Shown here piece after piece: positions 20,490-43,498 of a stretch of 64,000 nt of DNA. The stretch lies in NCBI GenBank assembly GCA_963771355.1, contig CAVYTA010000007.1, forward strand, positions 672,001 through 736,000. The letters are read 5' to 3'. Within the stretch, counting starts at the first letter, position 1. Every line of letters starts with the position of its first letter. A program made the translations under genes and the position numbers. Below the pieces are notes generated by a model. It was not told the origin of the DNA. It saw nothing but the letters and a program-made list of their open reading frames with translations, and did not search any database. The stretch comes from an uncultured Candidatus Rokubacteria bacterium (GTDB taxonomy: Bacteria > Methylomirabilota > Methylomirabilia > Rokubacteriales > CSP1-6).

Positions 20490-20562
20490 GAGCCGTTAGC
20501 TCAGTTGGCAGAGCACCTGACTTTTAATCAGGGGGTCGGTGGTTCGATCCCACCACGGCTCA
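20490..20562 (+). tRNA. tRNA-Lys(UUU); CCA not encoded (followed by CCT)
   Basis: Acceptor GAGCCGT/ACGGCTC, anticodon arm CCTGA-CTTTTAA-TCAGG, T arm GGTGG-TTCGATC-CCACC. Confidence 0.95.
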
Positions 20563-21022: not shown

Positions 21023-21029
21023 GCGCACC

Positions 21030-21197
21030 TCAGCCTGACTTCCGCCGGGCCCCGCCGGGGCTGTATGGCAATGGCTTGGCCCAACATTCTCGGTGCACCC
21101 GCTGGTCGCCGACGAATGGGCACGTGAAGGCATCCGCGATAAGGCGTTCACAGACCGGGCAGATCGGCTTCCCCTGGGCGTCGAGCCGGTTCTTCAA
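21030..21197 (-). CDS. Small putative zinc-finger protein (about 55 aa)
   Basis: CPVC..VHREC motif; GGAGG before a TTG start. Confidence 0.5.
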   Translation of the reverse strand: MKNRLDAQGKPICPVCERLIADAFTCPFVGDQRVHRECWAKPLPYSPGGARRKSG

Positions 21198-21464
21198 GGG
21201 CGGGCCTCCGAGTCCGAAAGAGTGTTCCGAAGTGAACACTTTGGGGATTCCGAAAGCAAGGGCGCCTTTGCGGCTGGGACTCAGGGGCTACAGGGAGGGG
21301 CAAGGCTGATCGCGGCTACCAGTGATAGAGGTCAGTTCGTGGGACTGAACACCAACGGGTGCGAGTGTCTGCAAATACAGCGTTACAGAAGAATCTGCGG
21401 GATCGAGGCCGCGGCGAGCGGACCCGAGCTGACCCGGCGGCTGGTCGAGCGACGGCCCGTCGGC

Positions 21465-22142
21465 TCAGGCCGGCACGGGCTCGATGAGCGCCGGGCCGTC
21501 GTTGGCGGGCGACGAGACGAGGGGCGAAACCGGGTAGGCCTCCAGTCGATCGGCAGGATACGGGCGCAAGAGAGGCAGGAGATCCCGCGGGTCGACCAGC
21601 TGGCGGTCCAGCCAGCGCGCCTCCACTTCGGGGTCGAGGATCACGGGCATGCGGTCGTGGATGCGCGCGGCCAGCTCGTTGGCCGTGGTGGTCACGATGG
21701 TGCAGGTGGCGGAAACCCCGGCGTCGGGATGCGGCGCGGTATAGAGGCCCGCGAACGCGAAGAGGCCGCCGCCGCGGAGGCGCAGATACCAGGGCCGCTT
21801 GCGCTTCTGACCGGGAACCGCCTGCCACTCGTAGAAGCCGTCCGCCGGCACGAGGCAGCGCGCATGCCTGAGTCCGTCGCTGAACATGGGGCTGGTGGCC
21901 ACCGTCTCGGCGCGGGCATTGATGGGCGCCAGCTTGCCGTCCCGCGCCCAGTGCGGCCGCAGCCCCCACCGCGCCCGCAGGAGCCGGCGCCGCCCTGCCG
22001 TCGCCACGATGACGGGCACGGTGTGGGAGGGTGAGACGTTGTAGCGGGAGATCAGCTCCTCGTTGTCGGCTTCCTCCACCTCGATGCCGAACCGCCGGGC
22101 CAGCTCCTCGAAGGCCGCCGTCTCCGTGTAGCGCCCGCACAT
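21465..22142 (-). CDS. SOS response-associated peptidase (SRAP/YedK/HMCES family)
   Basis: N-terminal MCGRY; INARAET, GFYEW and IHDRMPVIL motifs. Confidence 0.93.
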   Translation of the reverse strand: MCGRYTETAAFEELARRFGIEVEEADNEELISRYNVSPSHTVPVIVATAGRRRLLRARWGLRPHWARDGKLAPINARAETVATSPMFSDGLRHARCLVPADGFYEWQAVPGQKRKRPWYLRLRGGGLFAFAGLYTAPHPDAGVSATCTIVTTTANELAARIHDRMPVILDPEVEARWLDRQLVDPRDLLPLLRPYPADRLEAYPVSPLVSSPANDGPALIEPVPA

Positions 22143-22146
22143 GGCG

Positions 22147-22903
22147 TCAGGACGGGTGGCAGCGAAGGAGGCGCGTCCGCTTGGCGAGGAGGCGGACGGT
22201 GACATAGAAGGTGAGGCCGACGGCGGCGATCACCGTCCACACCGGGTCGAGGTCGAACGCGCCCGTCTCGTGGAGGTCCTCGGCCACGTCGAGTGCGAAG
22301 GGGAGGACGAGGACGAGAGTGAGCCCGTGGTATTCGCGTCGCAGGGCCTCGCGCCAGCGCCAGGGTCGCGCGGCGGGGACGAAGTGGCCAAAGGCTGGCC
22401 AGAGGCGCGGCACGCGCTCGGCCCACTCACTTCCACGTGCGCCCGAAGCGCACACGGAGAAAGACCTCCTCGCGCCAGGCGATGAGCGCGTAGTACCCGA
22501 GGGTGAGCGCCGCGACGGCGGGCGGGAGAAGCCAGGTGTGCGGGAACAGCGCCAGCCCCATGACGATGATGGCGTTGGCGAGGTAGAGCGGGTGGCGGAC
22601 GAGAGAGTAGGGGCCCGTCGTGTTCAGGGTCTCCGCTTTCTGCTTTCGCGTATTGCGTCCGGACGTGCCCGGCGCGGCCACCCCCACCGTCCAGATCCGG
22701 AGCGCCATGCCGATCAGGGAGAGGCCCACGCAGCACGCCTCCCAGGCGAGGTCGGTGGTCTCGGTGCCGAAGGGATAGGTCGCGCGCAGGATGGCCAGGC
22801 CGACGAGGGGCAGGAGGACGAGCGGGAGGTAGCTTCGCCAGCGGAAGAGCGCGTCACCCGCGCTCAGCATCCACCGGGGCTCGCGCGCACGGACCTGAGC
22901 CAT
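22147..22903 (-). CDS. Isoprenylcysteine carboxylmethyltransferase/PEMT-like membrane protein, frameshift near 22440
   Basis: GTSGRNT, TGPYSLVRHPLY and EEVFL motifs; continues WAERVPRLWP..LRREY in a second frame. Confidence 0.75.
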
Positions 22904-22947: not shown

Positions 22948-24912
22948 TCAGCGATTGCGAAGGAGCTCGGCGATGCGCTCTTGAAGGAGCTCGGCGGCCG
23001 ACTTGGCCGGCGTGTCCGCCGGCGCGGGCTCGGCGGGCGCGGCCTTGGTCCTCGGAGCCTCGGTCCTCGGAGGCTCGCTCCGCGGACGCTCGCTCCTCGG
23101 AGGCTCCACCCGCGCGGGCTCCACCCTCACCGCCGGGGCCGACGGCGCCGCGGCGGCCACCGCCACCGGGGGCCGCTCGGCCATCGTCGCGGCCACCGGC
23201 ATGGAGCCGAGCGCCAGGCGCAGCGGCTCGGCGGCCAGGGGCCGCGCGAAGAGATAGCCCTGGCCCCGGTCGCAGCCGAGCTCCTGGAGCTGGGCCAGCT
23301 GGTCGTCGGTCTCGATGCCCTCCGCGGTGACGGAGAGGTTGAGGCTCTTGGCCACGTCGACCACCGCGCGCACGATGGCGGTGTCCTTGGCGTTCAGGGC
23401 CACGCCCTGGACGAAGGAGCGGTCGATCTTGAGCGTGTCCACCGGGAAGCGCTTGAGGTAGCCCAGCGACGAGTAGCCGGTCCCGAAATCGTCGATGGCG
23501 AGCTGGACGCCGAGCGCCTTGAGGGCGTGCAGCGCCTCCAGCGTGGACGGCGCGTCCTGCATCACCACCGTCTCGGTGATCTCGAGCTTGAGACAGGCGG
23601 GATCCAGGTGGCTCGTCGCCAGGGCGTTCTTCACCGCCAGGACGAGCCCGGGGTCCTGGAGCTGGCGCGCGGAGAGGTTGACGCTCATGGTGAGCGGCGG
23701 CTGGTGCGGGAACTGGGCCGTCCACTCCTCGAGCTGGCGGCAGGCCTCGCTGAGCACCCAGGCGCCCACGGGGATGATGAGCCCCGTCTCTTCCATCAAT
23801 GAGATGAACTCGTCGGGCTGGAGCAGCCCGCGCTCACGGTGCTGCCAGCGCACGAGGGCTTCCACCTCGATCATGCGGCCGTCGCCCAGGTGCACGATCG
23901 GCTGGTAGTGGAGGACGAACTCGCCGCGGCTCAGCGCGCCGCGGAGATCCAGCTCGAGGTCGAACCGGTTGATGGCGGGAGCGCTGCTCGCGGCGTCGAA
24001 GACCTCGAAGCGGTTCTTCCCGTTGCCCTTGGCGCGGTACATGGCCAGGTCCGCGTCGCGCAGCAGCTCCTCCGGGGTGATGGGCCGCCGGGTGTTCAGG
24101 GCGATCCCCACGCTCATGGTCACGAACACCTCGCGTCCCTCGAGCCGGAACGGCTTCTCCAGGGACTCCGTCACGCGCTGGGCCACGCTGGTGGCTCCCT
24201 CGATGCCGTCGAGGTCTTCCAGGAGGATGGCGAACTCGTCGCCCCCGAGGCGGGCCACCGTGTCTTCGGGGCGGACGCAGCCGAGCAGCCGGCGGCTCGA
24301 CTCGACCAGCACCTGGTCGCCCATCCCGTGGCCGAGGCTGTCGTTGACCACCTTGAACCGGTCGAGGTCCAGGAACAGCACCGCCACGTGCTGTGCGCGT
24401 CGCTCGGTGCGGGTGAGGGCATGCGCCAGGCGATCCATGAACAGCGCGCGGTTGGGCAGGCCGGTGAGGGCATCCTGGAAGGCTTGGCGGGTGAGCTGGT
24501 CGAGCTGCTTGGGGAAGTTGTTGATCTCCTGCGATTGCTGCTCGATCGTGCTCATCATCTTCGTGAAGGAGGCCATGAGCGTCCCGATCTCGTCGGTCCG
24601 CTCCACCGCGGTGACGTCGCCGGGCTTGGCCTCGACCACCATGTTCGCCGCGCGAGTCAGCGCGCTGCCGATGTCATAGATGATGAAGCCGCCGCCCGCC
24701 ATGAGCAACGCCATGAAGATGAGCATCACGGACACCGCGAAGAGGTCCTGCGTATGCTGGACGCGGTCCAGCAGGGGCATGAAGTACGTGTAGAAGACGT
24801 AGGCCAGGATGAGGAGCGGGATGAGGGAGGACAGGACCAGCGCCAGCCCCATCTTGTGACGGACCTGCTTCCCGCTGAACGCGATTTCCCGCTGGATGCG
24901 ATTGCTGCCCAT
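22948..24912 (-). CDS. Membrane-anchored HAMP-like GGDEF-EAL diguanylate cyclase/phosphodiesterase
   Basis: Two TM segments; DALTGLPNR, GGDEF, EAL and DDFGTGYSS motifs; Pro/Ala-rich tail. Confidence 0.93.
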   Translation of the reverse strand: MGSNRIQREIAFSGKQVRHKMGLALVLSSLIPLLILAYVFYTYFMPLLDRVQHTQDLFAVSVMLIFMALLMAGGGFIIYDIGSALTRAANMVVEAKPGDVTAVERTDEIGTLMASFTKMMSTIEQQSQEINNFPKQLDQLTRQAFQDALTGLPNRALFMDRLAHALTRTERRAQHVAVLFLDLDRFKVVNDSLGHGMGDQVLVESSRRLLGCVRPEDTVARLGGDEFAILLEDLDGIEGATSVAQRVTESLEKPFRLEGREVFVTMSVGIALNTRRPITPEELLRDADLAMYRAKGNGKNRFEVFDAASSAPAINRFDLELDLRGALSRGEFVLHYQPIVHLGDGRMIEVEALVRWQHRERGLLQPDEFISLMEETGLIIPVGAWVLSEACRQLEEWTAQFPHQPPLTMSVNLSARQLQDPGLVLAVKNALATSHLDPACLKLEITETVVMQDAPSTLEALHALKALGVQLAIDDFGTGYSSLGYLKRFPVDTLKIDRSFVQGVALNAKDTAIVRAVVDVAKSLNLSVTAEGIETDDQLAQLQELGCDRGQGYLFARPLAAEPLRLALGSMPVAATMAERPPVAVAAAAPSAPAVRVEPARVEPPRSERPRSEPPRTEAPRTKAAPAEPAPADTPAKSAAELLQERIAELLRNR

Positions 24913-27006: not shown

Positions 27007-27085
27007 GACCCCGTCGTCTAGCCTGGCCAAGGACGCGACCCTTTCAAGGTCGAGATCGCGGGTTCGAATCCCGCCGGGGTCACCA
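27007..27085 (+). tRNA. tRNA-Glu(UUC)
   Basis: Acceptor GACCCCG/CGGGGTC, anticodon arm CGACC-CTTTCAA-GGTCG, T arm GCGGG-TTCGAAT-CCCGC, encoded CCA. Confidence 0.97.
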
Positions 27086-27737
27086 CCGCAGTTGGTACGA
27101 CCTTCCCGGGCAGGAGCGGCTCCCAAGAGCCCTGCCCGGTGAAGCGATAGCCACGGCGTCCATCCTTCTCGAAGGCCTCGCACGTTAGGCGTCCCACTAT
27201 CAATTTCCGTAGGATCTGGCGCGTTTGCGGCACATGCCGGCCGAGCAGACCCTTAACGTCAGAGGCGCGCGCAACGAGTTCTCGTTCTAGCTGTTTACCG
27301 TCGAGTAAGGCGACCTTCGCGGCCTGCTGAAGTGCCTCCAACTCGCCGATGAGGGTCTTCTTCCTTGTGTCTTCAGTCTTCAGCCTCGAGAAAAGAGATT
27401 CGTTGCGCTCACCCCTGGCGACGGCATCCACCAGGTTGCCAATGTGTGTTTCGAGAAGAGATAGCTCACGCTCGATGGCGGCTCGTCGATCCTGGAAGCG
27501 GTCCTGACCGCCTCTCAGCCGTTGCAGAGCTTTCTCGACCGCCCGAGCCAAGATCCGTTCGTCCAAGGCATCAGCGATCGCCTGGAGTACCACCTGATCA
27601 AGACCCTCCTGATGGATCAGGAGGGAGTTCTGGCAGATTGTCCGCCCACGCTTGTGGTAACGGTCGCAGCCATAGAGCGCCTTGCGCCCGCGCTTGAAGT
27701 CCCTGGTGATCCCGACCAAGGCTCCCAGCAAGTACAA
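27018..27737 (-). pseudogene. Large serine recombinase C-terminal half (zinc ribbon and coiled coil), 5' truncated, reading through att into antisense tRNA
   Basis: YGCDRYHKRGRTICQN zinc-ribbon part, coiled coil, GYRFTG..VVTPAGFEPA. Confidence 0.8.
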
Positions 27738-27953
27738 GCGCTGACCCGCCGCGAAGCGCTACCGGCACTCGCCGGCCGGTGACACGGAACGTCGGGCCCT
27801 CGACGGCCGGCATCCAAGAATCGACACGTTCTCTGTCGATCGACTGAGCGCGCCGCGTTCTTTTCAGCCATTTAGACGCCGCCGCCGGTGGCACCAAGGT
27901 TGCTCCTCTGACGTGAGGGTTTCCGTGCCTGGACCACGGGCAGGAGAGAGGGG

Positions 27954-28169
27954 ATGACGATGGACGGCGAGATCAAGCGAGAGGCGGCGTTCGCGGGGCA
28001 GCGGGTCAAGCAGAAGGTCGTCTTCGCCCGCGCCCTCTGCTCGGTCATCCCGCTCCTCGTCCTGGCCTACGTGTTTTACGGCAACCTCGTGCTGTGCCGT
28101 CGGCTCCTGGGACGGCCGGTCTGGGATTTCTCATCGGGTGACACGCGTGCCACCGTGGCAGCCGCCTAG
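27954..28169 (+). pseudogene. N-terminal stump paralogous to the GGDEF-EAL protein at 22948-24912
   Basis: IKREAAFAGQRVKQKVVFARALCSVIPLLVLAYVFY vs IQREIAFSGKQVRHKMGLALVLSSLIPLLILAYVFY. Confidence 0.65.
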
Positions 28170-28273
28170 CGCGGCGCGTCGAAGTAAACACGGTGATCTT
28201 TATCGCAATGTGCTGTGGCAAGAACTTGTTGCGCTACCGCGATCGATTCGACAGTAGTAGAGGAGGTCCCGAA

Positions 28274-30331
28274 ATGGCCACGCAGTCCTTGTTGCGGTCT
28301 TCCCGAAGTGCCTTCGCCGCATTGGCAGTGCTTCTCGTCGTTACGGTACTGCCGCTGCACGTCCCGGCTGTTGAAGGGGCGGAGCCCGTCGTTCCTGCTC
28401 AAGGTTCTGCTGATGGCACGCCCTCACCGACTTCAAGAGGTCACGGGCGCGGTGTGATCCGCACGGTAGGAGCGGCTCGCACCGCGAGCCGCCACATCCT
28501 CGTGCAGCTGCATCCGCGCACCGACGAGATGCGGTTCATGCAGGACGCCCACGCCCAAGGCTTGCGCCGGCTGAGCCGTGTGTATGGCACGACGTGGCTC
28601 AGGATGGCTGTCCCGGCGGGAGCCAATCCCGCCCAGGCAGCGGCGGCGGCCCGAACGCTGCCGGGCGTGTTGCGAGCCACGCTGGACTCTGTGGTGACGA
28701 TCAACGACCAGATTCCTCCTCGAGATCCGATCTACAAGAATGACGACGATCCCTCCACGAAGCCATGCGACCCGCTCCTCGAGATCTGTGACCCCTGGAC
28801 GTTGGTCGACCAGTGGGGTCTCTTCAAGGTTGAAGCAGAGACTGGATGGGTCGTCCAACGCGGCGGGCCGGGCGTCGTCATCGCCATCCTCGACAGCGGA
28901 ATCGACCTCGACCATGACGATCTGTGGGCGAAGCTCTGGACGAATCCGGGCGAGGTTCCCGGTAACGGGATCGACGATGATGGCAATGGCCTTGTCGATG
29001 ACGTGCACGGGGCCGATTTCGCCGGCAGCAATGTCGGCGGTCTGTTCGATGACCCTGGCTCCCAGGATGGGAATCCGGATGTTCCGATGGGAGGCGCGTG
29101 GGTCGTGGACCCGACGGCGACGTTCGGGATTCGTTTCGTCGGCGATGCGGCCGCAGGCGACGGGGACGACAACAACCTCGACGGGTTGATTGATATCGGC
29201 GTCACTCACGGAACATTCGTGGCGGGGATTGCCGGTGCCATGACCGACAATGTCAATCCCCAAACGCTTCAGGCCGAAGGCATGGCTGGTGCCTGCTGGC
29301 ACTGTAAGCTGATGCCGGTGCGCATGATCAATGCCGAGGGCTGGGCTTTCGGCTCGGATGCAGCCTCGGCAATCTATTACGCGGCGAACATGGGCGCCCA
29401 TGTCATCAACATCAGCTGGGGCATCGACCTCAGCGGGGCCGATCCGTCCGAGGTGGAGGCGATCCAGGTCATAGCTGACGCCATCGATTTCGCCGCAAGC
29501 CGCGGGGTGATCGTGGTGGCGGCAGCGGGAAACAGCGGCACGGCCGGCCTGCACTTTCCCGCCATCATGAAGAATACGATTGCGGTGGGAAGCTCCAACT
29601 GGCTCGATCGACGTTCTGCCTTCTCCAGTCACGCCGTTCCGGCCGAGATTCCCGATAACGGTCTCGATGATGATGGGAACGGCTGGGTGGATGACGTGCT
29701 CGATGTCGTCGCTCCCGGAGAGCTGATCTGGAGCACTGCCGTCTTGAGCGCGTACGACTCGCTGCTTTACGAACTGCTCGGTCTACCGGGGCTGGAGCCG
29801 GGGACGGACACGTATGGAGCGGCGGATGGCACGTCGTTCTCCACCCCGCTCGTGTCGGGTTACGTGGGGCTCCTCCTCTCACAGAATCCGGGAGCGACGC
29901 TGCGCCAAGTGCGGCAGGCCATCCGCGCGAACGCCCGGGACCTCCTCGACCCGCAGGGCGTTGGGGCTTCGCTGGTGGGATACGATGCCTACTCCGGTTT
30001 CGGGCGGCTCCGCATGGTCGTGACCACGCTGACCCCGGAGCCGAACGCGCCTCCTGTTGCGAATGCCGGCCCCGATCAAGCTGTCTTCGTCAAGGGCAAG
30101 GCGGTGGCCTCAACGGTGACGCTCGATGCTTCGGGCTCGCATGACCCGGATGGCACGCTTGTCTCTTACCAGTGGCTTGAGAACGGCGCTCAGATCGCTA
30201 CGGGGAAAACGGCAGCAGTGAGCCTCGGGATCGGCTCTCACACGATCACGTTGCGAGTGACCGACGACGATCAGGCAAGCAGTGAAGATCAGTTGACCGT
30301 TGATGTCAACAAGCGCGGTGGGAGGAAATAA
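28274..30331 (+). CDS. Secreted subtilisin-like S8 serine peptidase with C-terminal PKD-like domain
   Basis: Signal peptide; triad ILDSG, HGTFVAG, GTSFS; oxyanion AAGN; DDDGNG Ca-binding repeats; LDASGSHDPDG..SYQW. Confidence 0.92.
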   Translation: MATQSLLRSSRSAFAALAVLLVVTVLPLHVPAVEGAEPVVPAQGSADGTPSPTSRGHGRGVIRTVGAARTASRHILVQLHPRTDEMRFMQDAHAQGLRRLSRVYGTTWLRMAVPAGANPAQAAAAARTLPGVLRATLDSVVTINDQIPPRDPIYKNDDDPSTKPCDPLLEICDPWTLVDQWGLFKVEAETGWVVQRGGPGVVIAILDSGIDLDHDDLWAKLWTNPGEVPGNGIDDDGNGLVDDVHGADFAGSNVGGLFDDPGSQDGNPDVPMGGAWVVDPTATFGIRFVGDAAAGDGDDNNLDGLIDIGVTHGTFVAGIAGAMTDNVNPQTLQAEGMAGACWHCKLMPVRMINAEGWAFGSDAASAIYYAANMGAHVINISWGIDLSGADPSEVEAIQVIADAIDFAASRGVIVVAAAGNSGTAGLHFPAIMKNTIAVGSSNWLDRRSAFSSHAVPAEIPDNGLDDDGNGWVDDVLDVVAPGELIWSTAVLSAYDSLLYELLGLPGLEPGTDTYGAADGTSFSTPLVSGYVGLLLSQNPGATLRQVRQAIRANARDLLDPQGVGASLVGYDAYSGFGRLRMVVTTLTPEPNAPPVANAGPDQAVFVKGKAVASTVTLDASGSHDPDGTLVSYQWLENGAQIATGKTAAVSLGIGSHTITLRVTDDDQASSEDQLTVDVNKRGGRK

Positions 30332-30369
30332 GGATCCAAGGCTCGAGGCCTTGACGGCTCACCGATCAC

Positions 30370-30570
30370 GACCGCCTGACGCCGACTTCTGTCCGGAGCG
30401 CGGCGCGAAGCTCGCGGTTGGCTGCGTCGGGTGTGGACCACGACCACGAACGTTGCCCGACACAAGTTCTGCAAGAAGTGCGGCAAACCTTTGGGCAACG
30501 CCGTCGACGCGGGGCGGGCTCCCGGGACGTCGCCATCGCTAGAGGGGTATGTCCCCAAGCAGGAGCAACA
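30370..30570 (+). pseudogene. Double zinc ribbon stump of an adenylate cyclase-type gene
   Basis: DADFCPERG..CVGCG and HKFCKKCGKPL..YVPK, resembling the N-termini of the cyclases at 11144 and 33521. Confidence 0.55.
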
Positions 30571-30876
30571 GACGAATGGATCTCCAATGCAGAAGATCTA
30601 CGAGGTGCTCAGGGAACTTCAGCGGGGCATGTTTTAGTGGCGTGCTGTGTTCGAGGTGGCGGTGCGCAGAAAGCTGCTGAGACATTTGGTGAAAACGTGG
30701 CCGTGACTGAAACACGGATTCCATCCGGATCTCGAAGCTGAACTCGAGGGACCTGTTCGCCTGCAAGTGGTTGCGGGCCCCCGCAACCATGCAAACTGAC
30801 CGACTACTGCCGAGACGCCCGCGTAGCTGGTTTGCTGACGATCACATAGCCCATTGGGGAAGGGACCTCGTGGCGC

Positions 30877-31089
30877 TCAGGCCGCGAGCGCGACGCCTTC
30901 GATGCAAAACGTTAGCGATGCGTTCCAACCCTCGGAATAACCCCCCGGGGTCACCACCTTATTAGCAGCGGGTGTCGCCAAGATGAGCCGCTCGATTCCA
31001 GCCTGCCCCGTGAAACGGTAACACCGGCCGGCGTCATCTTCCTCCGGCATGAGGATGATTCGTCCCTTAACAGGCGCATCACGCAGCAT
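30877..31089 (-). pseudogene. Serine recombinase 3' fragment spanning the second att core
   Basis: GRIILMPE..YRFTGQ..VVTPGGYSEGWNASLTFCIEGVALAA*. Confidence 0.75.
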
Positions 31090-31243
31090 CGCTGGTGCAG
31101 ATCCGTTACGGAGACGAAGCCGCCATCACCGACGTCACTCGAGCGAAGCCGGTGATGCCGACGCCGCAGCAGACCGATCAGGGCGCGCGGCGGCCGCCGG
31201 AGATTCGCCCGCAGGATAGTCGAGCGGCCTGCTGGGTCGCGCG

Positions 31244-33521
31244 TCAGCGCTCGCCGACGACGAAGTGAAGACCGGCCAGCTTGAGGCGGATCGCGTCCCG
31301 CTGGTGCGGGCGGACGGCATCGGCGTGGGCGGTGGCCAGCTCCAGCGCGCTCTGCAAGTGGCTGATCGCCTCCGGGTTGGCGCCCGATGAGCACGGCGCC
31401 GTCGGCGGCGGTCAACAGGTAGGGCAGCGCCGCGATGGCCCGATCGCTCCGAACCCAGTGGTGGGCGAGCTGGTCGCAGACCTCCTCGGTGCGGCCGCGA
31501 TACAGCGACTCGATCGTCTCCGCAGCCCGCCCGTGACGCGTCTTGCGGTCGGCCTGGAGTAGCGTGCCGTAGGCCACCTCCTGGGTCAGGACGTGGTGGA
31601 AGCTCAGCATGGCAATGCCGCCGCCGGCCTCTTGATCGAGGAGCCCGCGGCGCTCGAGCAGCGCCAGGTCCTCGTCGAACTGCTCGCCCGGCGTCAGCGC
31701 GCGCAGGTGCGCCAGCAGGAAGCGCTTGCCGAGCACCGCCGCGTCGGCGATCAGGTCGCGCGCGGAGGGCGACAGGCGGTCGATGCGCGCCGCGATCAGC
31801 GCGTGCAGGGTAGGCGGTACCACGGCGGCAGCGTCCGCGGTCAGATCGTAGGCGCCGTCGGCGAGGACGAGGCCGCCGCGCTCCCGGAATGCCCGGACGA
31901 GCTCCTCGGCATAGAACGGGTTGCCCTGTGCCCGCTCGGCCACGGCCCGGCGCAGTCTCTCGCGCGCCGGGTAAGGATCGAGCTGGGCATCCACCAGCGC
32001 CGCGATGTCGTCGGACGCCAATGACCGGAGCCGAATCTCCCGGACGCCGGCCACCTCGAGGCAACTGCCGGCGAGCGGCAGCCGCGACGTCATGAGCAGG
32101 AGCAGCGGAAGCTCGCGCGCGACCGTGGCCAGCCGACGGCACAGGTCCTCCGACGATGGATCGAGCCAGTGGACGTCCTCGAGCAGCACCAGGCGCGGCG
32201 CCTGACGGCACTCGGCTACCACCCACGCGACCAGCGCCTCCTGCACGCGGTCGCGACGCCCGTCGGCCGGCGTGTCGCGCAGCATGGCGGACGTCTCGCT
32301 TGATGTCCCCAGGATCGGCAGGACATCGGGCACGTAGGCCGCCAGGTCGGGCGACAGATCCCACAGCCGCCGGTGCAGCGCGTCGCGAGCGGCCGCAAGA
32401 TCCCCGTCCGGCGACAGCGCAGCCAGCTGTCGCAGCAAAGGCCGGAAGGCGAAGTAGGCGGCTCTGCGCGCGTACGCTTGCGCGGCGCCCTCGACCGGTG
32501 GCGGCAGGCCGAGGTGGCGTTGCAGCTCGTAGGCGAGCCGGGACTTGCCGATGCCGGGCTCACCGACCAGGCAGATAGCGTCACCACGGCCGCTGGCGGC
32601 GCGTTCCCAGGCCTCGCCGAGCACGGCGAGCTCCGTCTCGCGGCCGCGGAAGGGGGAGACCCCACGCCGGAGCGAGGCTTGCAGGCGCGAGACGACCGTG
32701 CCTTCACCGTCGAGCACGAAGGCCTCGACCGGCTCGGCGGCCCCGCGGACGCGCAGCGCGCCGAGCGGTCGCACGCGGAAGTAGCCCTCGACGAGCCGGT
32801 GGGTCGGCGACGCCAGCAGGATCGAGCCCGGATCGGCGGCCTGTTGCATGCGGGCGGCGAGATTCGTCGTGAGCCCCTGCGCGGTGTAGTCCATGCGCAG
32901 GTCGTCGCCGATGGCACCGACGACGACGGGGCCGCTGTTGAGGCCGAGCCGGACCTGGATGCCGAAGCCCTTGTCACGCCGCAGCCGGGCGGCGTGCTCG
33001 GCGAACCCGCGCTGGATCTCGAGTGCCGCCTGGCACGCGCGCCGCGCGTGGTCCTCGTGAGCGATCGGCGCGCCGAAGAGCGCCATGATCCCGTCGCCTG
33101 TGAACTGGTTGACCGTGCCCTCCCAGCGATGCACGGCGTCGAGCATGATCTGGAAGGCGCCGTCCATGACCATGTGGAAGTCTTCGGCGTCGAGGGCTCC
33201 GGCCAGCTCGGTCGAGCCCTGCACGTCGACGAAGAGGACGGTCACCTCCTTGCGCTCGCCGCGAAGCGCGCGTCCCTCGGTCAGGATCCGCTCGGCCAGG
33301 TGACGCGGTGTGTAGGAGGCGGGCGCGCGGACGACGGCGGGGTCGACGGTAATGGGGGCAGAGGGGCCGACGGACAGCGCCGTGCCGCAGGCGTCGCAGA
33401 AGCGCGCGTGGGGACGCTGGCCCTTGCCGCAGGCCGGGCAGCGGGCCTCGAGGGCGGCGCCGCACCCGTCGCAGAAGTGGGCGCCCTGGCGAAGATCCTG
33501 GGCGCAGGCGGGGCAGTTCAC
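31244..33521 (-). CDS. Double zinc ribbon - class III cyclase - AAA ATPase protein with short TPR tail, frameshift near 31385
   Basis: Four CxxC pairs; VTVLFVDVQGS, TNLAARMQ and GEPGIGKS motifs; continues ANPEAISHL..VGER* in another frame. Confidence 0.82.
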
Positions 33522-33537
33522 GCCGGGGCGGCGACGA

Positions 33538-34089
33538 TCACTCGTCGCGGAGCGCCGTGTTGGCCAGGGTCGTGAAGATCGTGTTGAACACGCAGAACGC
33601 GGCGAAGCCGATCATCTCGCGGACGTCATCGGGCGTGAGGCCCTGGGCCTCCATCTCGCGGAAGTCCTTGGGCTTGACGTCCATCGCGTCCAGCGCGAAG
33701 CGCAGCACGTACCGCACGAAGGCCTGTTCCCGCTCGGGGAGCGGCAGGGCGACCGGGTTGGCACAGATGCCGTCCAGCGCGGCCTCGTCGAAGCCCAGCG
33801 CGATCAGGCCTCGGCGCGAGGAGCCGAAGCAGCCGGTGCACCGCCGGGCGTGGGCCACCAGCATGAACGCGAACATCCGGGCCTCCCAGGAGAACCTCGA
33901 GCGTCCGGAGCGCTGGTTGAACAGATTCGCTTCGGCGGTCACCTGGGCCTCGAGGATCCAGGGCGTTGACACGTACGCGAGCCGGCTCTCGGGTACCGTC
34001 GTGATGCCGCGCAGCCGCTTCAGCTCGTCCAGCCAGTGGCACGCCGCGGGCGGGATGTCCTCTTCCTTGGGAAGGTCGAAGAATGCCAT
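33538..34089 (-). CDS. AhpD/carboxymuconolactone decarboxylase-like protein, paralog 2
   Basis: LVAHARRCTGC motif, ERE..VRYV and CVFN; near-duplicate of its neighbour. Confidence 0.7.
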   Translation of the reverse strand: MAFFDLPKEEDIPPAACHWLDELKRLRGITTVPESRLAYVSTPWILEAQVTAEANLFNQRSGRSRFSWEARMFAFMLVAHARRCTGCFGSSRRGLIALGFDEAALDGICANPVALPLPEREQAFVRYVLRFALDAMDVKPKDFREMEAQGLTPDDVREMIGFAAFCVFNTIFTTLANTALRDE

Positions 34090-34092
34090 CGG

Positions 34093-34641
34093 TCAATCCT
34101 CGCGCAGCGCCGTGTTGGCCACCGTGGTGAAGATCGTGTTCATGAGAGCGTGGGCGGCGCAGCCGGCGATCTCCTGCACATCGGTCGGGGAGAAGCCCTG
34201 GGCCTGGAGCTCGCGGAAGTCCTTGGGCTGGAGCTCGCTGGGATTGGTCGCGATGCGAAGCACGTACTTCACGAACAGGCGCTCGCGCTCCGGCAGAGGG
34301 AGCACGGACGGATTGGCGCAGAAGCCGTCGAGCGCCGGCTCGTCGAAACCCAGCTTGGTCAGGTGTCCGCGCGAGGCGCCGAAACAACCGTCGCACCGCC
34401 GGGCGTGGGCGACGAGCATGAAGGCGATCATCCGGGCCTCCCAGGAGAACGCCGACGGTTCCGATGGCCTGAACAGGCTCGCTTCGACGGTCACGCGGGC
34501 CTTGAGGATCTGCGGAGAGGGCGCGTACGTCACCCAGCTCCGCGGCAAGGTGTCGACACCGCGCAGGCGCTTGAGCTCGTCCAGCCACTGGCGCGCCTCG
34601 GGAGAGATGTCCTCGTCCCTGGGGACGTCGAAGAAAGCCAT
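34093..34641 (-). CDS. AhpD/carboxymuconolactone decarboxylase-like protein, paralog 1
   Basis: MAFFDVP start; LVAHARRCDGC motif. Confidence 0.7.
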   Translation of the reverse strand: MAFFDVPRDEDISPEARQWLDELKRLRGVDTLPRSWVTYAPSPQILKARVTVEASLFRPSEPSAFSWEARMIAFMLVAHARRCDGCFGASRGHLTKLGFDEPALDGFCANPSVLPLPERERLFVKYVLRIATNPSELQPKDFRELQAQGFSPTDVQEIAGCAAHALMNTIFTTVANTALRED

Positions 34642-34808
34642 GGGGCACACTTCCTTCCGGCTGAGTACCTGACGATAGATCACGCCTCCGTGCCACGCAA
34701 GTACCGCGGCCGCACACGAAAGCCGATTGACTGCAATCAGCGGCACGGTTCCCCAGACGACCACCGTGCGCACGCGCCCGGGGACACGGGTTTGTCGAGC
34801 TGCCGGCA

Positions 34809-34940
34809 CGCGTCGCGATCACGCCGGGCCGCGGCCTTCCGCTGGCGGCTCCGGGCGGCCCGGCACCGGGCGGAGCAGACCTTTTGGCGGGCGTGGATCG
34901 GGGCCGTCCGGCACACCGGGCACGTACGGGAGGCTAGCAT
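34809..34940 (-). repeat. Copy D of zinc-finger micro-ORF (3' truncated)
   Basis: MLASRTCPVCRTAPIHARQKVCSARCRAARSRQRKAAARRDRDA. Confidence 0.8.
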
Positions 34941-35009
34941 GGCGCCACGCAAGGGAGACCGACCATCGGGGAGCCCCTCCGCACAGCTAGGCAACGCGGA
35001 TAACTCCGG

Positions 35010-35475
35010 CCGGAAGATGCGCTCGACGATGGGAGCCTGCTCCGGGTCCACCACGCGGGCGACGTGCTCGCGCGTGCCGTCCGGGCCCAGCACCGGTTCG
35101 TTGCGGTACCGAAGATCCGCCCGCCGGTGACGTGCCGCGCCCGCGCTTTCCTCAGCATCGCGTCCCGGGTCCGCTGCCGTGCCTTCTCGCGCTCGAGTTC
35201 GTCGGCGAAGCCGGCCACGGACATCAGCAGCTTCTCGGTGGGGGAATCGATCGTGCGCTCGCGGTCCTCAGAGGTAGAGGAACACGCGCACGCCGCCCTG
35301 GGTGAACTGTTTCAGGGCATAGGCGGTCTCGATCTGCTCGCGCCCCAGGCGGGACTCCTCCGACATAGATGAGCACCTGGAACGACGGCCGCGGCTTGAG
35401 CGCATTCATGAGTCGGAGGAATCCGGGGCGCGTCGTGAACTCCGCCCCGCTGATCCCGTCTTCGGCGCAGACGTG
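35010..35475 (-). pseudogene. Large serine recombinase N-terminal (resolvase and start of recombinase domain) remnant, multiply frameshifted
   Basis: Across frames: DGISGAEFTTRPGFLRLMNALKPRP, EESRLGREQIETAYALKQ, ELEREKARQRTRDAM, EQAPIVERIF. Confidence 0.8.
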
Positions 35476-35585
35476 GGCGGGGTCCTTGCGCGACGCCTGC
35501 GTTACCTTTCAGTTGGCTATATGCTGGCGTGTCGCGGTACACTCCGGTCGCCGTTCCCAACTGCCCACACAGAGGAGAGCGCCTA

Positions 35586-36555
35586 ATGCGGCACTGGCGA
35601 GCAGCGTTTGCAGCTTTGGTCATCCTAATTGGCTCCGCCCTCCCTGCGGTCGCCGCTGAGGGAGATCCTAGTGACGATCTCCCGGTGCCACCAGACGTTT
35701 CATTCAGCGTTGGGACACGCGCTTGGTGGACGAGTGGCTATTCGGAATGGAGTCATCAGTGTTCCAAGGCACTAATCCACTTTCCGAACTTCGCTGGCGA
35801 GGGATTGACGCACTCATTCCTGAAGTTAACGCTGACTTCGCGTGGAAGCTTCTCGTGTTGAGAGCCGCAGCTGGGTGGGGCAAGAGCGAAAACGGGGTCT
35901 TAATCGATGAGGACTTTCTCCTTGATGACCATAATGGGCGCTTCTCTGTTTCTCGGTCTAGTGTCGAGAGCGACATTTTCTACGCGAACGGGGATGTCGG
36001 CATCCGCGCTTACCGCTGGATCAGTACGGATGGGCGGCTCGGCTTTTTCGACTTCCTCGGAGGCTATCAATACTGGCGAGAAAATACGAAGCTTTTGGAT
36101 CACAGGCAGCTTAGTTTACCCCCTCTCCCGACGCCCATTGCGCCGCAAGGCACCAAGGTGCTTACAGAGAAGTTCACCTGGCAGAGCCTCCGCATTGGCG
36201 CTCGGTACCAGGTTCCGTTTCCGAAGGGCTTCGGCTTTAGGGCGGAGGCCATGTTTATACCGTGGTCGCAGTTCGAATTTGAGGACATTCACCATTGAAG
36301 GACTGACTTGCGCCAGGATCCGAGCTTCCTCGCGAAAGCGGAGGGAGGTTTCGGCGTTCCAGGCCGAAGGAGCAATCAGCTACACGATCTGGAAGGGGTT
36401 TTCCATGGAAGGCGGCTTCCGGTACACGAAAATCAGATTCAGGGCGATGGCGACATAGAAGTTCGGACTGTATCCGGCACAGCTGAGACAGAAGTTTGAA
36501 GGTGCGAAAGACGGAGCGGTACGGCCCGTTTGTCGGCCTTCAGTATCGTTTCTGA
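35586..36555 (+). pseudogene. Outer-membrane beta-barrel (omptin-like) gene with frameshifts and an internal stop
   Basis: Signal peptide, SELRW..DEDF, amphipathic strands, C-terminal GLQYRF; visibly AT-richer. Confidence 0.55.
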
Positions 36556-36560
36556 GTAGT

Positions 36561-36726
36561 CTATGCAACCGCGACTCCGGCCAGCGTGAAGGCGAGGAAT
36601 TCCTCAGCCGGTACAGCGGCACCGCCCGGGGTCACCACATACGTTGGAACCATCGTTCCCCGGTGAAGCGATAACTCCGCTGCCCGTCCTTCGCGAAGGC
36701 CTCGCACGCTAGGCGTCCCACTATCA
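36561..36726 (-). pseudogene. Serine recombinase 3' fragment spanning the third att core
   Basis: Nucleotide match to 27136-27202 (CCCGGTGAAGCGATA; GAAGGCCTCGCACGnTAGGCGTCCCACTATCA); VVTPGGAAVPAEEFLAFTLAGVAVA*. Confidence 0.8.
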
Positions 36727-36892
36727 CGTCGTCGGACCAAGGTCCTATTGCCGGCCCGTGAGGGACGCGCGTTAATTTCACAGGTCGAGCGCGCAGCCCG
36801 AGACCTCAGGGAGGACGACATCATGGGAGTTTTCATGATCGACCCGATGTTGAGCAATTCACATAACACTCACGTTGGTTGAGGAGGCCGTT

Positions 36893-37297
36893 ATGATCGT
36901 TCGGCTCGTCATGCTGGTGTTCGGCGTGCTGCTCATGTGTATTAGCCCGGCCTCTGGCCAGATCAAGAGCCCAGATGTCGTCGGGACCTGGGTGGGGGTT
37001 CTTGAGCTAACGGGCGACAAGAGCCCGGTCGAGGTTGAATTCAAGTCGGATGGAGGATTCGGAGGTAGTGTCAAGACCGCGAAGGAGGGTCTCGTGCGGT
37101 ATAAGGGGGGGTGGAAGATCGAAGGGGCCAACGTCCTTGTGGACTACGTGGCTGACGCTGCCACAGGGACCGCAAATGTGCCGGCCACGGTGGCGAGTTC
37201 GTGGACCTTGACGATGCTCCAGGGCAAGTCCTTGAGCGGATTCGGTATTCGGAAGTCAGACAATCTTCAATACGACGTCAAATTGAACAAGAAGTAG
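36893..37297 (+). CDS. Hypothetical secreted beta-rich protein
   Basis: GAGGAGG RBS, signal peptide, VVGTWVG motif. Confidence 0.65.
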   Translation: MIVRLVMLVFGVLLMCISPASGQIKSPDVVGTWVGVLELTGDKSPVEVEFKSDGGFGGSVKTAKEGLVRYKGGWKIEGANVLVDYVADAATGTANVPATVASSWTLTMLQGKSLSGFGIRKSDNLQYDVKLNKK

Positions 37298-37474
37298 CTG
37301 AAGGTGGTGGAGGCGTCACAACCTCCACCACTCGCAGCGCTGCTGTGTGGGAAGGTGCCACGCGACGGCAAAGCTCGGTAGACACTTAGGCGATACGGAC
37401 GACGCCCCTGATGGTCTGAGGTCGCGGGGTGAAGGGGACAAAACGCCCCGGGGTCACCACGCCTTTCCCGTGAC

Positions 37475-37578
37475 GATAGGCAACATAAACGCCCTCCGGA
37501 GGGAGGATAGGCAACATGAACGCCCTCCGGCGGCGGGCGCCCCTGGCTTGGGTCCCGTCACCGTGCTTGGGTCCCGTC
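37475..37578. repeat. Two pairs of short direct repeats
   Basis: GATAGGCAACATRAACGCCCTCCGG at 37475 and 37506; GCTTGGGTCCCGTC at 37546 and 37565. Confidence 0.85.
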
Positions 37579-37733
37579 CCCGGGACATAACCTGCCAGAC
37601 CCGGACGCTGGCCGCCCCAGGAGCCGACGGCACAGCGACGATCTCCTCCGGCCCCACGCGCAGCACGAGGTGCTGGAGGCCGGTGCCGTCCCAGCTCTCC
37701 CAGCGCGCGACGGTGGGGCCGCCCGCGACGCGC

Positions 37734-39918: not shown

Positions 39919-40896
39919 CTACTCGATCACCTGATCCGCCCGCGCCAGCACCGACGGCGGGATCGTCAGGCCGAGCGCCTTCGCGGTCTTGAGGTTGATC
40001 ACCAGCTCGAACTTGGTCGGCTGTTCTACGGGCAGGTCGGCGGGCTTTGCGCCCCTGAGAATGCGGTCGATGTACCCGGCGGCACGCCGCAGCATATCGA
40101 CGAGGCTCGCGCCGTACGCCATTAGGCCACCCGCCGTCACGAAGTCCGCGCTCTCGTAAATCGCGGGGAGACCGATCTCCGAGGCGAGCTGCGCGATGCG
40201 CCGGCGCTCCAGCCAAAACATCGGATGGGGATGGACAAGCAGCGCCTCCGGCCGCGCGGCGCGCGCTGCCGCGAGGGCAGCGCCGATCTCGCCCGGCTGC
40301 CGAGCGATGAAGAGCTGGATCCCCAGGCCGAGCCGGGCAGCTTCGCGCTCGATCTCCCGATGCTTTTGGGTTGCGAGGGCGGCAACTCTCCGGAGCCTCG
40401 GCACGGTGTCCTTGAGCAACTGAAGCCGCTTGCCCGTCAACTCGCCGGTTAGATGACTGAAGCCTGTGATGTTCCCGCCAGGCCGCGCCAGGCTCGCAAC
40501 CAGGCCGGCCTCCTCGGGATCGGCGACCGCGACGAACACCACCGACACCGTAGTGGTCACCTTCTTGAGAGCCTCGGCGAGCTCGTTCGAGGCGACTATG
40601 GCGACATCGACGTTCTGCCCGACCAGGTCCCTCGCCGCATGCAGCATCTCCTCGCCCCCGCTCACGGCGCAGCGCGGTACAACGACGTAGTTCTGCTCCT
40701 GGACGTACCCGAGCTCGCGGAGCCCGCCCCGCAGCGCGAGCACCGCGGGAGTAGGGGAATCGATGCCGCAGCCGGGCGGCAGGCCGGGGACGAGGAGTCC
40801 GATCCGCCAGACCTTCCCCGCCGGCTGCGCCTCGGCGGCGCGCGGCGCGGCGAGGAGACTACCTGGGATCATTGCCAGGAAGGTGCGGCGCTCCAT
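39919..40896 (-). CDS. Orphan ABC substrate-binding protein
   Basis: MERRTFL, SLARPGGNITG and ADQVIE* motifs. Confidence 0.9.
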   Translation of the reverse strand: MERRTFLAMIPGSLLAAPRAAEAQPAGKVWRIGLLVPGLPPGCGIDSPTPAVLALRGGLRELGYVQEQNYVVVPRCAVSGGEEMLHAARDLVGQNVDVAIVASNELAEALKKVTTTVSVVFVAVADPEEAGLVASLARPGGNITGFSHLTGELTGKRLQLLKDTVPRLRRVAALATQKHREIEREAARLGLGIQLFIARQPGEIGAALAAARAARPEALLVHPHPMFWLERRRIAQLASEIGLPAIYESADFVTAGGLMAYGASLVDMLRRAAGYIDRILRGAKPADLPVEQPTKFELVINLKTAKALGLTIPPSVLARADQVIE

Positions 40897-41037
40897 CACG
40901 GGTGCTCCCTCAGCTTCTCCAGTGCCGTCTCGAGCAGCCCCCGGATCTCCGCGTCGCGCTCCCGCCGGGCCGCGGTCTTCCGCTGGCGACTTCGGGCCGC
41001 CCGACACCGGCCGCTGCAGACCTCCTGGCCGCCATGC
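40896..41037 (-). repeat. Copy C of zinc-finger micro-ORF (5' truncated)
   Basis: HGGQEVCSGRCRAARSRQRKTAARRERDAEIRGLLETALEKLREHP*; TGATG overlap with the SBP start. Confidence 0.8.
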
Positions 41038-41192
41038 TAGCGCGCCCGCTGCGCCACGGCTAGCGCACCGGCGAGCGCCGAGGGGCCGGAGTCGCGCCTG
41101 CCTTTTGGTGGCGGCTCTGCCAGAACTCTACGATTAGCGGTCTGGCGCTCGCCGATCCAGCGGGGTTTTGGGGTAGACTCGGGGGAATACGC

Positions 41193-42455
41193 ATGATTGC
41201 AGTGTTCCTCGGCGGCGTCCTCCTCAGCGTCGTGATCCTTTTCGCCTTGGTCGTGTGGTCGATTCGCCGTCACCGCGACCCCGACCTGCACATCGAATGC
41301 GACTCACGCATCGATCAACTGATCCCCACGCTCGCGGGCTTGACGCTGGGGACGGCGGTCGCCGGCAACACGGCGGAGGTGCTCGAGAACGGCGCCTTCT
41401 TCGATGTGCTGATCGGCCGTATCCAGGCGGCGCGAGAATCCGTGCACTTCGAGACCTTCCTGTGGAAGGAGGGGACCCTGGGCCGTCGTGTCGCCGATGC
41501 TCTGATCGACCGAGCGCGGGCCCGAGTGAAGGTGCGGGTCCTGCTGGACGCCGAAGGCTCCAAGGGCGCCGGGACGAGTGTCGTGCAGCAGATGCGTGAC
41601 GCGGGCTGTCGCGTGGTGTTCTTCCACGACCGGAAGATTCGAAACATCGGCGTGTTCAACGACCGCGACCACCGGAAGCTGGTGGTCATCGACGGGCGCG
41701 AGGCCTTCGTGGGCGGCCACTGCATCGTGGACGAGTGGCTCGGCAATGCGGAAGACGGCAAGCACTATGCGGACATCAGCCTCCACTTGCACGGGCCCAT
41801 CGTGCACACCGTGCAAAGCGCCTTCAGCGAGAACTGGGCCGGCGAGACGGGCGAGCTCTTCGTGGGGGACGACGTCTTCCCGGCGTTGGCGCCGGCGGGC
41901 GACATCCTCATGCATGCCGTGTTCGCCAAGCCAGAGAACTCGGCGCCCGCGGTCAAGATCCTGCACCACACCGCGATCTGCCTGGCGCGCAGCCGCATCT
42001 GGATCCAGAATCCCTATTTCATCCCGGAGCCCGACGCCATCGATGCCTTCGGCGAGGCGGTGGCCCGCGGGGTGGACGTGCGAGTCCTGATGCCTTCGAC
42101 CAGCGGCTCGGACAACCCCATGGTCCAGCACGCCGGCCACCGGAACTTCGAAAAGCTGCTGCGTTGCGGCGTTCGCCTGTTCGAGTACCCGCACACCCTG
42201 CTGCACCAGAAGGTGATGACCGTCGACGGCGTCTGGAGCGCCATCGGCTCGAGCAACTTCGACGACCGCTCGTTCGAGACGAACGACGAACTCACCCTCT
42301 CAATCCGGGACGAGGCGCTAGGGCGGCGGTTCGACGCGATCTTCGAAAAGTATGTCGCGCGGGCGTCCGAGATCGAGCTCGAGCGGTGGCGCAAGCGGGC
42401 GCTGTCGCACAGGCTCACGGACCACTTCTTCTATGCGCTGAACGAACTTCTTTGA
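41193..42455 (+). CDS. Cardiolipin synthase-like phospholipase D
   Basis: Two HKD motifs (HRKLVVID, HQKVMTVD); NPYFIP and GSSNFD. Confidence 0.9.
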   Translation: MIAVFLGGVLLSVVILFALVVWSIRRHRDPDLHIECDSRIDQLIPTLAGLTLGTAVAGNTAEVLENGAFFDVLIGRIQAARESVHFETFLWKEGTLGRRVADALIDRARARVKVRVLLDAEGSKGAGTSVVQQMRDAGCRVVFFHDRKIRNIGVFNDRDHRKLVVIDGREAFVGGHCIVDEWLGNAEDGKHYADISLHLHGPIVHTVQSAFSENWAGETGELFVGDDVFPALAPAGDILMHAVFAKPENSAPAVKILHHTAICLARSRIWIQNPYFIPEPDAIDAFGEAVARGVDVRVLMPSTSGSDNPMVQHAGHRNFEKLLRCGVRLFEYPHTLLHQKVMTVDGVWSAIGSSNFDDRSFETNDELTLSIRDEALGRRFDAIFEKYVARASEIELERWRKRALSHRLTDHFFYALNELL

Positions 42456-42526
42456 CCGACACGAACATGCCGTCGCGATTGGCCGCGGTAGATAGTCACC
42501 GATCACCAGGAACGCGCGGCGGTCCA

Positions 42527-43498
42527 TCACTCGATCACCCGATCCGCTCGTAGCAAGAGCGACGGCGGGATCGTCAGGCCGAGCGCCTTGGCGGTCTTGA
42601 GGTTGATGACCAGCTCGAACTTCGTCGTCTGTTCCACGGGCAGGTCGCCCGGCTTCGCCCCCTTTAGAATTCTGTCGACATAGTAGGCGGCCCGCCGGAA
42701 CATGTCAGGAAAGCTCGGCCCATAGGCCATGAGACAACCATCGACTACAAAGGTGCGCTCTTGGCACACTGCCGGGAGCCGACCTTTCGCCATCAGCCTC
42801 AGGATCGTCGTCCGGTGAGCGGCAAAGAGCGGTGACGCCAGTTGGATGACCGCTTGGGCACGCTGCTGCCTGGCGGCTTCAAATGCTCGCTCCAGGTCCT
42901 GCTCCCCTCGCACCTCGAGGACTTGCAGGATGAGCCCCAACGATGGGGCTACCCGCTCGACAGCCTTGACTGCGTTTGGCCTGACCGAATCCCACAGCAC
43001 AGCCACGCGGCTGACCTCCGGAATAGCCTCCCTCAACAGTTGCAGTCGTTTGGTTACTAGCTCGGAGTCTTGAAAGGAAAGTCCGGTGAGGTTTCCGCCC
43101 GGACGCGCGAGGCTGGTGACGAAGCCCTGTTCAACCGGGTCCTCAACGATGGCCATGACAATGGGAATCACGCTGGTGGCGCGCTGAGCCGCACGGATCG
43201 CATGCGGACCCGAGGTCACAATGACGTCAGCCTTAAGCCCGACTAACTCAGCCGCAAGGCCGGGAAACCGCTCTGGCTTGCCCTCGCCCCATCGATACTC
43301 AATAGCGATGTTTTGGCCCTGCACGTACCCGCGTTCACGCAATCCTTCGCGAAATGCCGTGAGCCAGGAGGACATGAGGGAGGAGGTGGCGGTCCCGAGG
43401 AGACCTATAAGGGGAACCTTCCCCGCCGGCTGCGCCTCGGCGGCGAGCGGCGCAACAAGCAGCGCGGCAGCACCAGCCAGGAGCGCGCGGCGCTCCAT
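42527..43498 (-). CDS. Orphan ABC substrate-binding protein (array member 3)
   Basis: MERRALL, SLARPGGNLTG and ADRVIE* motifs. Confidence 0.9.
   Translation of the reverse strand: MERRALLAGAAALLVAPLAAEAQPAGKVPLIGLLGTATSSLMSSWLTAFREGLRERGYVQGQNIAIEYRWGEGKPERFPGLAAELVGLKADVIVTSGPHAIRAAQRATSVIPIVMAIVEDPVEQGFVTSLARPGGNLTGLSFQDSELVTKRLQLLREAIPEVSRVAVLWDSVRPNAVKAVERVAPSLGLILQVLEVRGEQDLERAFEAARQQRAQAVIQLASPLFAAHRTTILRLMAKGRLPAVCQERTFVVDGCLMAYGPSFPDMFRRAAYYVDRILKGAKPGDLPVEQTTKFELVINLKTAKALGLTIPPSLLLRADRVIE

Follow-up and report, generated by a model that had tools for sequence, protein, structure and literature searches.

A stretch of 64,000 nucleotides (nt) from an uncultured Candidatus Rokubacteria bacterium (contig CAVYTA010000007.1, positions 672,001 to 736,000; hereafter the window) carries, at a tRNA-Glu gene, a tandem array of three decayed elements (3.9, 5.7, and 0.8 kb) with remnants of large serine recombinase (integrase) genes. 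We propose, with a probability of roughly 55%, that in elements of this type the integrase gene crosses its own attachment site (attP), that integration exchanges a conserved Ala-ending tail of 20–25 residues, probably a degradation tag of the ClpXP type, for residues that are not conserved and are read from the tRNA gene, and that the window contains a decayed stack of such elements. Comparison of sequences establishes the layout, the position of the crossover, the swap of the tail, and protein-level selection on the tail end.

The last 13 bases of the tRNA-Glu are present in four identical copies in the window, and at each of these cores the minus-strand frame encodes VVTP. The array consists of the following features (aa, amino acids):

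27007..27085, plus strand: tRNA-Glu(TTC), the target gene (ARAGORN)
27018..27074, minus strand: tRNA-antisense integrase tail, 18 aa past VVTP, stop TAG at 27018-20
27074..27086, plus strand: core 1 (attL)
27075..27737, minus strand: C-terminal 40% of a large serine recombinase (element 1), with a weak PF13408 match below the cut-off
30877..30944, minus strand: attP-side tail 2, 22 aa past VVTP, ending ALAA, stop at 30877-79
30945..30957, plus strand: core 2 (array junction)
30958..31065, minus strand: short piece left from the C-terminus of a second integrase type, in the VVTP frame
35013..35475, minus strand: frameshifted N-terminal integrase remnant (element 2), tblastn 70-83% to L007 in three frames
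36561..36625, minus strand: attP-side tail 3, 21 aa past VVTP, ending AVA, stop at 36561-63
36626..36638, plus strand: core 3 (array junction)
36639..36793, minus strand: C-terminal remnant of an integrase, internally deleted and frameshifted (element 3), tblastn E 1.6e-6
37386..37447, minus strand: attP-side tail 4, 20 aa past VVTP, ending RIA, stop at 37386-88
37448..37460, plus strand: core 4, the outermost junction found; its right side is only possibly the original tRNA flank

Cores, VVTP motifs, tails, and stop codons had been reported in an earlier, sequence-only reading of this DNA, and all of these coordinates were confirmed. Its placement of VVTP in the recombinase frame is borne out at cores 1 and 2; at core 3 the integrase remnant is frameshifted just ahead of VVTP, and at core 4 no integrase remnant was detected. 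The 3′ end of the tRNA-Glu is restored by integrase-coding sequence. The tails had been described as otherwise unrelated, which proved incorrect: tails 2 and 3 have the common ending F-x-(I/L)-x-G-V-A-(L/V)-A, present in Nitrospira elements too, and tail 4 is of a G-x-(I/V)-R-x-A type that is frequent in a same-genus array (the type is found in genomes G006, G002, and G052). The proposed ending G-V-x(2-3)-A fits the tails of the window but is not the rule of the family, which is a terminal Ala, mostly Ala-Ala. An Ala end at 18–30 aa follows 1.8% of random starts in such DNA, and finding it in 3 of 3 tails has a chance of ∼6e-6. The stretch is present in sequencing runs. An empty tRNA-Glu site was not found in seven same-genus genomes, in which the flank, where assembled, is occupied or at a contig edge.

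Intact homologs of these integrases are 550–600 aa long, with resolvase, recombinase, and zinc-ribbon domains (PF00239, PF07508, PF13408) and a fold that matches solved serine integrase–att complexes; they are present in Rokubacteria, Nitrospirota, and Acidobacteriota, and 68 of 251 genomes of the phylum have a match at E 1e-40. One intact homolog, P0116, is 78% identical over 219 aa to the element 1 piece at 27075..27737 and continues past VVTP, unbroken and in frame, with a tail homologous to tail 3. Its 90%-identity cluster includes three members with the tRNA tail of the window (a tail also carried by intact homologs P0050, P0272, P0276, P0279, L238, and L239) and two whose ending starts with the tail-2 sequence. 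Because this one cluster holds three endings past VVTP, the same enzyme evidently changes its ending at the core. Together with a crossover within the integrase frame and the rebuilt attP sites, the cluster bears out the earlier claim that attP lies inside the serine integrase gene.

We rebuilt attP-side tails from 151 stitched stretches (3.47 Mb) containing 71 integrases that run antisense into a tRNA end, defining a core as an element-side copy of at least 13 nt of the tRNA end. Twenty-two of the 71 have such a core, and none was found for the other 49 in the sequence examined. Over 1.33 Mb, 33 tRNA-end cores lay in the right orientation and 0 were reversed; one duplicate was dropped, leaving 32 rebuilt tails from 21 genomes or loci. 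The sequence-only reading had proposed enrichment of Ala-ending termini among rebuilt sites as its test, and the enrichment is clear: 21 of the 32 tails end in Ala, as against 11.9% of random starts and 3 of 23 and 3 of 32 in the other frames; 19 of the 32 combine an Ala end with a length of 18–30 aa. Without the window the counts are 18/29 and 16/29, and with one tail per genome they are 13/20 (P 3e-8) and 11/20. Whichever of the three frames the integrase takes relative to the tRNA, the terminal Ala goes with the integrase frame (15/26, 1/1, and 3/5), the effect holds at tRNA-Glu, -Arg, -Ser, and -Ala, and 18 of the 21 Ala-ending tails end 21–26 aa from the core. Among 269 database homologs (27 truncated ones left out; tail classes assigned by an in-house motif list), Ala-Ala ends 32 of 110 non-tRNA tails vs 0 of 132 tRNA tails, or 21 of 69 vs 0 of 57 in 50%-identity representatives; in roughly called host open reading frames (ORFs) the figure is 2.2%. 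The rebuilt tails, along with the protein-level selection set out below, support the claim that the circle form has an Ala-ending tail and the integrated form a tRNA-antisense one.

Symmetry analysis of 21 elements gave a single centre, 11 nt from the CCA end, which puts the presumed crossover dinucleotide, CC, at 27074-27075, at the junction of T-stem and acceptor stem. Inverted arms 17–24 nt from the centre were seen in rebuilt attP only (3.95 of 8 matches vs 1.8–2.4 in attB, attL, and attR), and this degree of symmetry was reached by 0 of 2000 shuffles. Two such arms belong to element 1:

27091..27098, plus strand: attP arm motif, integrase side, 17–24 nt from the crossover, with a 7/8 inverted match to 30922-30929
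30922..30929, plus strand: dual-coded attP arm motif within the coding sequence of tail 2, 7/8 with the core-1 arm and 8/8 with the core-3 arm

The sole cognate arm in the window is the one to the left of core 2, and only element 1 rebuilds a cognate attP. Tails 3 and 4 were also tried as partners of the local integrase arms and rejected (0–3 of 8 matches); because neither arm 3 nor arm 4 has a partner, elements 2 and 3 are, on this evidence, mosaics.

Among Ala-ending tails no longer than 30 aa, the stop lies 54–78 nt from the att centre. Because the attP arms lie at 17–24 nt, the first third of the tail is dual-coded with an att arm and the conserved end lies beyond it. The last tail codon can be any of the four Ala codons, all three stops are used, and over the last 8 codons of two tail families (6 and 5 tails) the proportion of synonymous differences (pS, 0.78 and 0.74) exceeds that of nonsynonymous ones (pN, 0.29 and 0.39). 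From the excess of pS over pN, the use of all four Ala codons, and the position beyond the att arms, we conclude that the conserved tail end is under selection at the protein level, outside the att site. By eye, no conserved DNA motif was seen 3′ of the stop in 19 tails. An explanation of the endings by chance or by an attP DNA motif, to which the Ala-richness of G+C-rich DNA and the overlap of the first third with the arm motif might lend themselves, is contradicted by the controls for frame, orientation, and random starts, by the synonymous codon variation, and by the position of the conserved end, and is almost certainly wrong.

The swapped tail is likely a ClpXP-type degradation tag. Terminal Ala-Ala is the chief ClpXP determinant (PMC7652416). 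Set against host ORFs that end in Ala-Ala, tails with this ending more often have L, F, Y, or W at −5 (16/38 vs 13/86, P 0.002) and less often have disfavoured residues at −3 (6/38 vs 36/86, P 0.007), a preference and an avoidance that parallel those reported from an Escherichia coli ClpXP tag screen (bioRxiv 10.1101/2024.01.29.576913). The host encodes clpP-clpX and lon, and the tag of its transfer-messenger RNA (tmRNA) ends ALAA, as tail 2 does. The tail of P0116 is predicted to be unstructured (AlphaFold predicted local distance difference test, pLDDT, ∼30, with residues 540–572 under 50); the alignment had 39 rows, and the test is a weak one.

Several observations weigh against this reading. 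Neither the −4 test (P 0.23) nor the acidic-residue test (P 0.35) was significant. Eleven of the 32 rebuilt tails have a terminal residue other than Ala (in some of them a shifted frame gives an Ala end, as decay would produce), and only 10 of the 19 short Ala-ending tails have Ala-Ala, the other 9 ending in VA, IA, TA, or SA; in the window itself the Ala-Ala end is on tail 2, tails 3 and 4 ending in VA and IA. In the tag screen VA can work (FKLVA), 39% of Ala-Ala pentapeptides are weak, and the excerpted text is silent on IA (10.1101/2024.01.29.576913). A single terminal Ala is found in 13 of the 132 tRNA tails. The sequences are related, so P values are overstated, but the effect spans four tRNA types. 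Every integrase copy in the window is broken, and the local copies are relics. Finally, the fixed length and the alternating hydrophobic pattern with Gly could equally fit a binding strand.

A strand of this kind would make the tail an activity or specificity element, as in Mx8 Int, docking on the enzyme, a partner subunit, or a directionality factor, with a circle form that integrates well and an integrated form that is altered. The tight length of the Ala-ending tails, the hydrophobic-x-Gly-x-hydrophobic pattern kept within tail families, and the many xA rather than AA ends all suit such a role, for which Mx8 is a precedent (PMC6070905), and the authors who described DsiB, the integrase of the Dehalococcoides ssrA islands, proposed full function on the circle only (PMC3146451). 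However, the AlphaFold model gives the tail no structure (within the limits of that test), conservation across families is seen at the free terminal Ala and not in the inner residues, and tails are exchanged between integrase types at junctions. We consider this role unlikely.

An element that integrates at the junction of T-stem and acceptor stem rebuilds the tRNA from its integrase codons and exchanges the tail. Provided that this tail is a degradation tag, the integrase made by a circle, whether incoming or excised, would be short-lived, in a pulse sufficient to integrate and then cleared; this would favour a single round of integration, and clearance of the circle form would limit re-integration after excision. 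The integrated element would make an untagged, stable integrase that could accumulate for excision with a separate excisionase-like factor. As a corollary, because newcomers insert at the tRNA, a resident integrase would inherit the tagged tail of the newcomer and be destabilised, which would help inner elements to fossilise, as in the window. The sequence-only reading had inferred a proteolytic switch of directionality or stability here; with no intact integrase in the window, nothing there switches at present, and tails 3 and 4 do not pair with the neighbouring integrase arms. Control of directionality by the tail is argued against by excisionase-like genes in intact relatives (phrog_66 matches in 3 of 13 related loci, predicted from a scan of 76 selected proteins of the 13 loci against PHROGs), and because relatives carry these genes, we favour a switch of stability over one of directionality.

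The tail could also be a degradation tag whose loss on integration is a by-product of having attP in the gene, with expression controlled otherwise and no switch selected. On the tRNA side, tails are 5–81 aa long and occur in all three frames, which argues that there is no selection there; repressor-like genes accompany the excisionase-like ones in intact elements, and the Int protein of mycobacteriophage BPs is tagged in both states (PMC3694055). But the overlap has been retained at four different tRNA targets and in no fewer than three phyla, and the absence of Ala-Ala from the 132 tRNA tails points the same way, though only ∼3 would be expected by chance. A mere by-product seems to us quite unlikely. 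Another possibility is recruitment of ClpX by the tail to dismantle the integrase–DNA product complex after integration, as ClpX does with MuA transposase, instead of setting the enzyme level. Many tails have basic residues ahead of a final AA (of 40 Ala-ending proteins, 16 carry R or K at −3 and 11 carry R at −4), and only enzyme made by the circle would occupy the new attL and attR inside the tRNA gene, but characterised serine integrases are not known to need ClpX, and we rate this possibility as improbable, slightly more so than the by-product. The broader proposition, that recombination adds or removes a ClpXP degron throughout a widespread clade of tRNA-targeting serine integrases, with stability reporting the integration state and newcomers tagging the resident integrase, is tentative and falls a little short of an even chance.

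The integrase here is of the serine family, whereas that of Mx8 is of the tyrosine family. In Mx8 and Mx9, attP lies within int, and integration, which acts as a switch, supplies another 3′ end (PMC6070905, PMC4383910); the crossover inside the int reading frame and the change of C-terminus on integration are common to Mx8 and the present elements, but the effect reported for Mx8, in the excerpted text, is on specificity and efficiency and not on proteolysis (PMC6070905). In BPs, attP is inside the repressor gene and integration removes a C-terminal protease tag (PMC3694055). The present elements likewise have attP inside a gene and lose a C-terminal tail on integration (here Ala-ended and a putative tag), but the swapped gene is that of the recombinase, and whereas BPs is described as a three-gene switch without Xis, excisionase-like matches occur here. 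DsiB, a serine integrase, overlaps attL at ssrA and has a variable end for which its authors proposed regulation (PMC3146451). In DsiB as in the present elements, attL at the 3′ end of a tRNA-like gene is overlapped by the gene of a large serine recombinase that runs on the other strand, and tandem arrays and a variable C-terminus are common to both. The targets here are tRNA genes and not ssrA, and the DsiB module has DsiA, ParB, and Mom, with no conserved tail or degron described in the excerpts of that account (PMC3146451). A dsiA-parB-mom module was not seen among the 76 proteins of 13 loci, for which the PHROGs scan was the only search and no dedicated one was made.

Like ssrA and other C-motif-1 ClpXP degrons, many of the tails have terminal Ala-Ala or Val-Ala on an end predicted to be unstructured, with a preference for a hydrophobic residue at −5 (PMC7652416, 10.1101/2024.01.29.576913); unlike such degrons, the tails frequently have R or K rather than Leu at −3, and many end in xA. 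With phiC31, Bxb1, and TP901-1 the family shares catalytic, recombinase, and zinc-ribbon domains, a similar fold, and attP inverted arms near 20 nt, and it differs in targeting tRNA 3′ ends and in having attP inside the gene. In 2014 the Islander paper, as excerpted, stated that serine integrases were not known to target tRNA 3′ ends (PMC4383910). A full-text literature search, which did not cover supplements, found no account of a swapped Ala-ending tail in a serine integrase or of these precedents in combination, and the excerpts of PMC12884075, PMC13626063, and PMC9144972 held nothing on swapped tails. Were the tail a degron, recombination would set the half-life of its own enzyme in a self-contained feedback, joining the layout of Mx8 and the logic of BPs in one gene, and the growth and fossilisation of tandem arrays at tRNA ends would be accounted for. 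Genome-mined integrases are usually the tRNA-tailed form, and the form chosen could alter activity or stability in engineering; annotation pipelines assign such integrases spurious tRNA-derived ends.

Across the family the target genes are tRNA-Glu, -Ala, -Ser, -Arg, -Leu, and -Met. Intact elements are 6–12 kb long, and because they carry capsid, terminase, primase, and excisionase-like genes, many resemble small prophages or satellites of phages. One serine-integrase element of 5.9 kb, at a tRNA-Ser, also contains a tyrosine integrase gene (L108:7583-8950). Five intact integrases with Ala-ending tails have no tRNA adjoining (L080, L084, L088, L096, and L117), and 5 of 12 integrases with a readable end on viral contigs, which are not known to be free circles, finish in AA or VA. 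Two distant integrases from viral contigs (L146 and L147) have ends that look like a tRNA-like 3′ end read in antisense; no tRNA was called in their vicinity, and these integrases may be tmRNA-targeting in the manner of DsiB. A metagenome scan yielded five short loci, with a tRNA tail in two and attR in none. The best relatives in isolated phages are only ∼30% identical; four of them end in FVA, IAA, RRA, and SAS, with tRNA-end-like matches of 9–11 nt or none, which is weak. In one same-genus genome we counted eight cores at the same tRNA, with 4 of 7 non-tRNA tails of the tail-4 type, and a later search added a ninth; this 61-kb array (G006:C9:843025-904371, at least nine cores at the same tRNA-Glu) is a good site for studying array growth.

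The element 1 integrase survives in the window as an ORF (27018-27737) from which the catalytic and recombinase domains are gone, the piece at 27075..27737 matching only residues 342–555 of the intact homolog L003. By eye, the remnant at 30958..31065 resembles one at G006:C9:899285. The remnant at 36639..36793 shares a 68-nt repeat (D6) with 27135-27202. With the query used, no intact integrase was found elsewhere in the genome, the sole other match being partial (39%, on contig C6). Element 1 has one large cargo gene:

28193..30331, plus strand: subtilase (S8) with a PKD domain, cargo of element 1 (PF00082, PF18911)

This gene looks intact (712 aa). Also inside element 1, a short frame at 27945-28085 resembles by eye the N-terminus of a GGDEF/EAL-like gene at 22948-24912 and is likely a paralog fragment. 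In element 2, ∼4 kb of host-like G+C content (31066-35012; 67–74% vs 56–65% around it) stands in place of the middle of the integrase, and it also holds two tandem paralogs, 76% identical and without Pfam matches; a zinc-ribbon/cyclase/AAA gene at 30951-33521 is seemingly frameshifted near 31400.

Other repeats lie in and around the array. A dispersed repeat of ∼135 bp at 37502-37637 has 16 matches (E 1e-8) in the genome, 9 of them on the contig, and many in two same-genus genomes; it looks like a small non-coding mobile or repetitive extragenic palindromic (REP)-like element, and a 27-nt piece of it is inverted at 28091-28117 inside element 1. To the right of core 4 are two 31-nt tandem copies, 90% alike (37472-37533). 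A repeat of 87 nt (83%), lying in a small ORF rich in Cys, occurs at 34809-34895 and 40950-41036, the second copy directly ahead of one of five similar genes at 39919-45623 that we take to be substrate-binding-like. Upstream, at 20490-22205, a tRNA-Lys is followed by small ORFs and one further gene, presumably an SOS-associated peptidase, which may represent a separate insertion.

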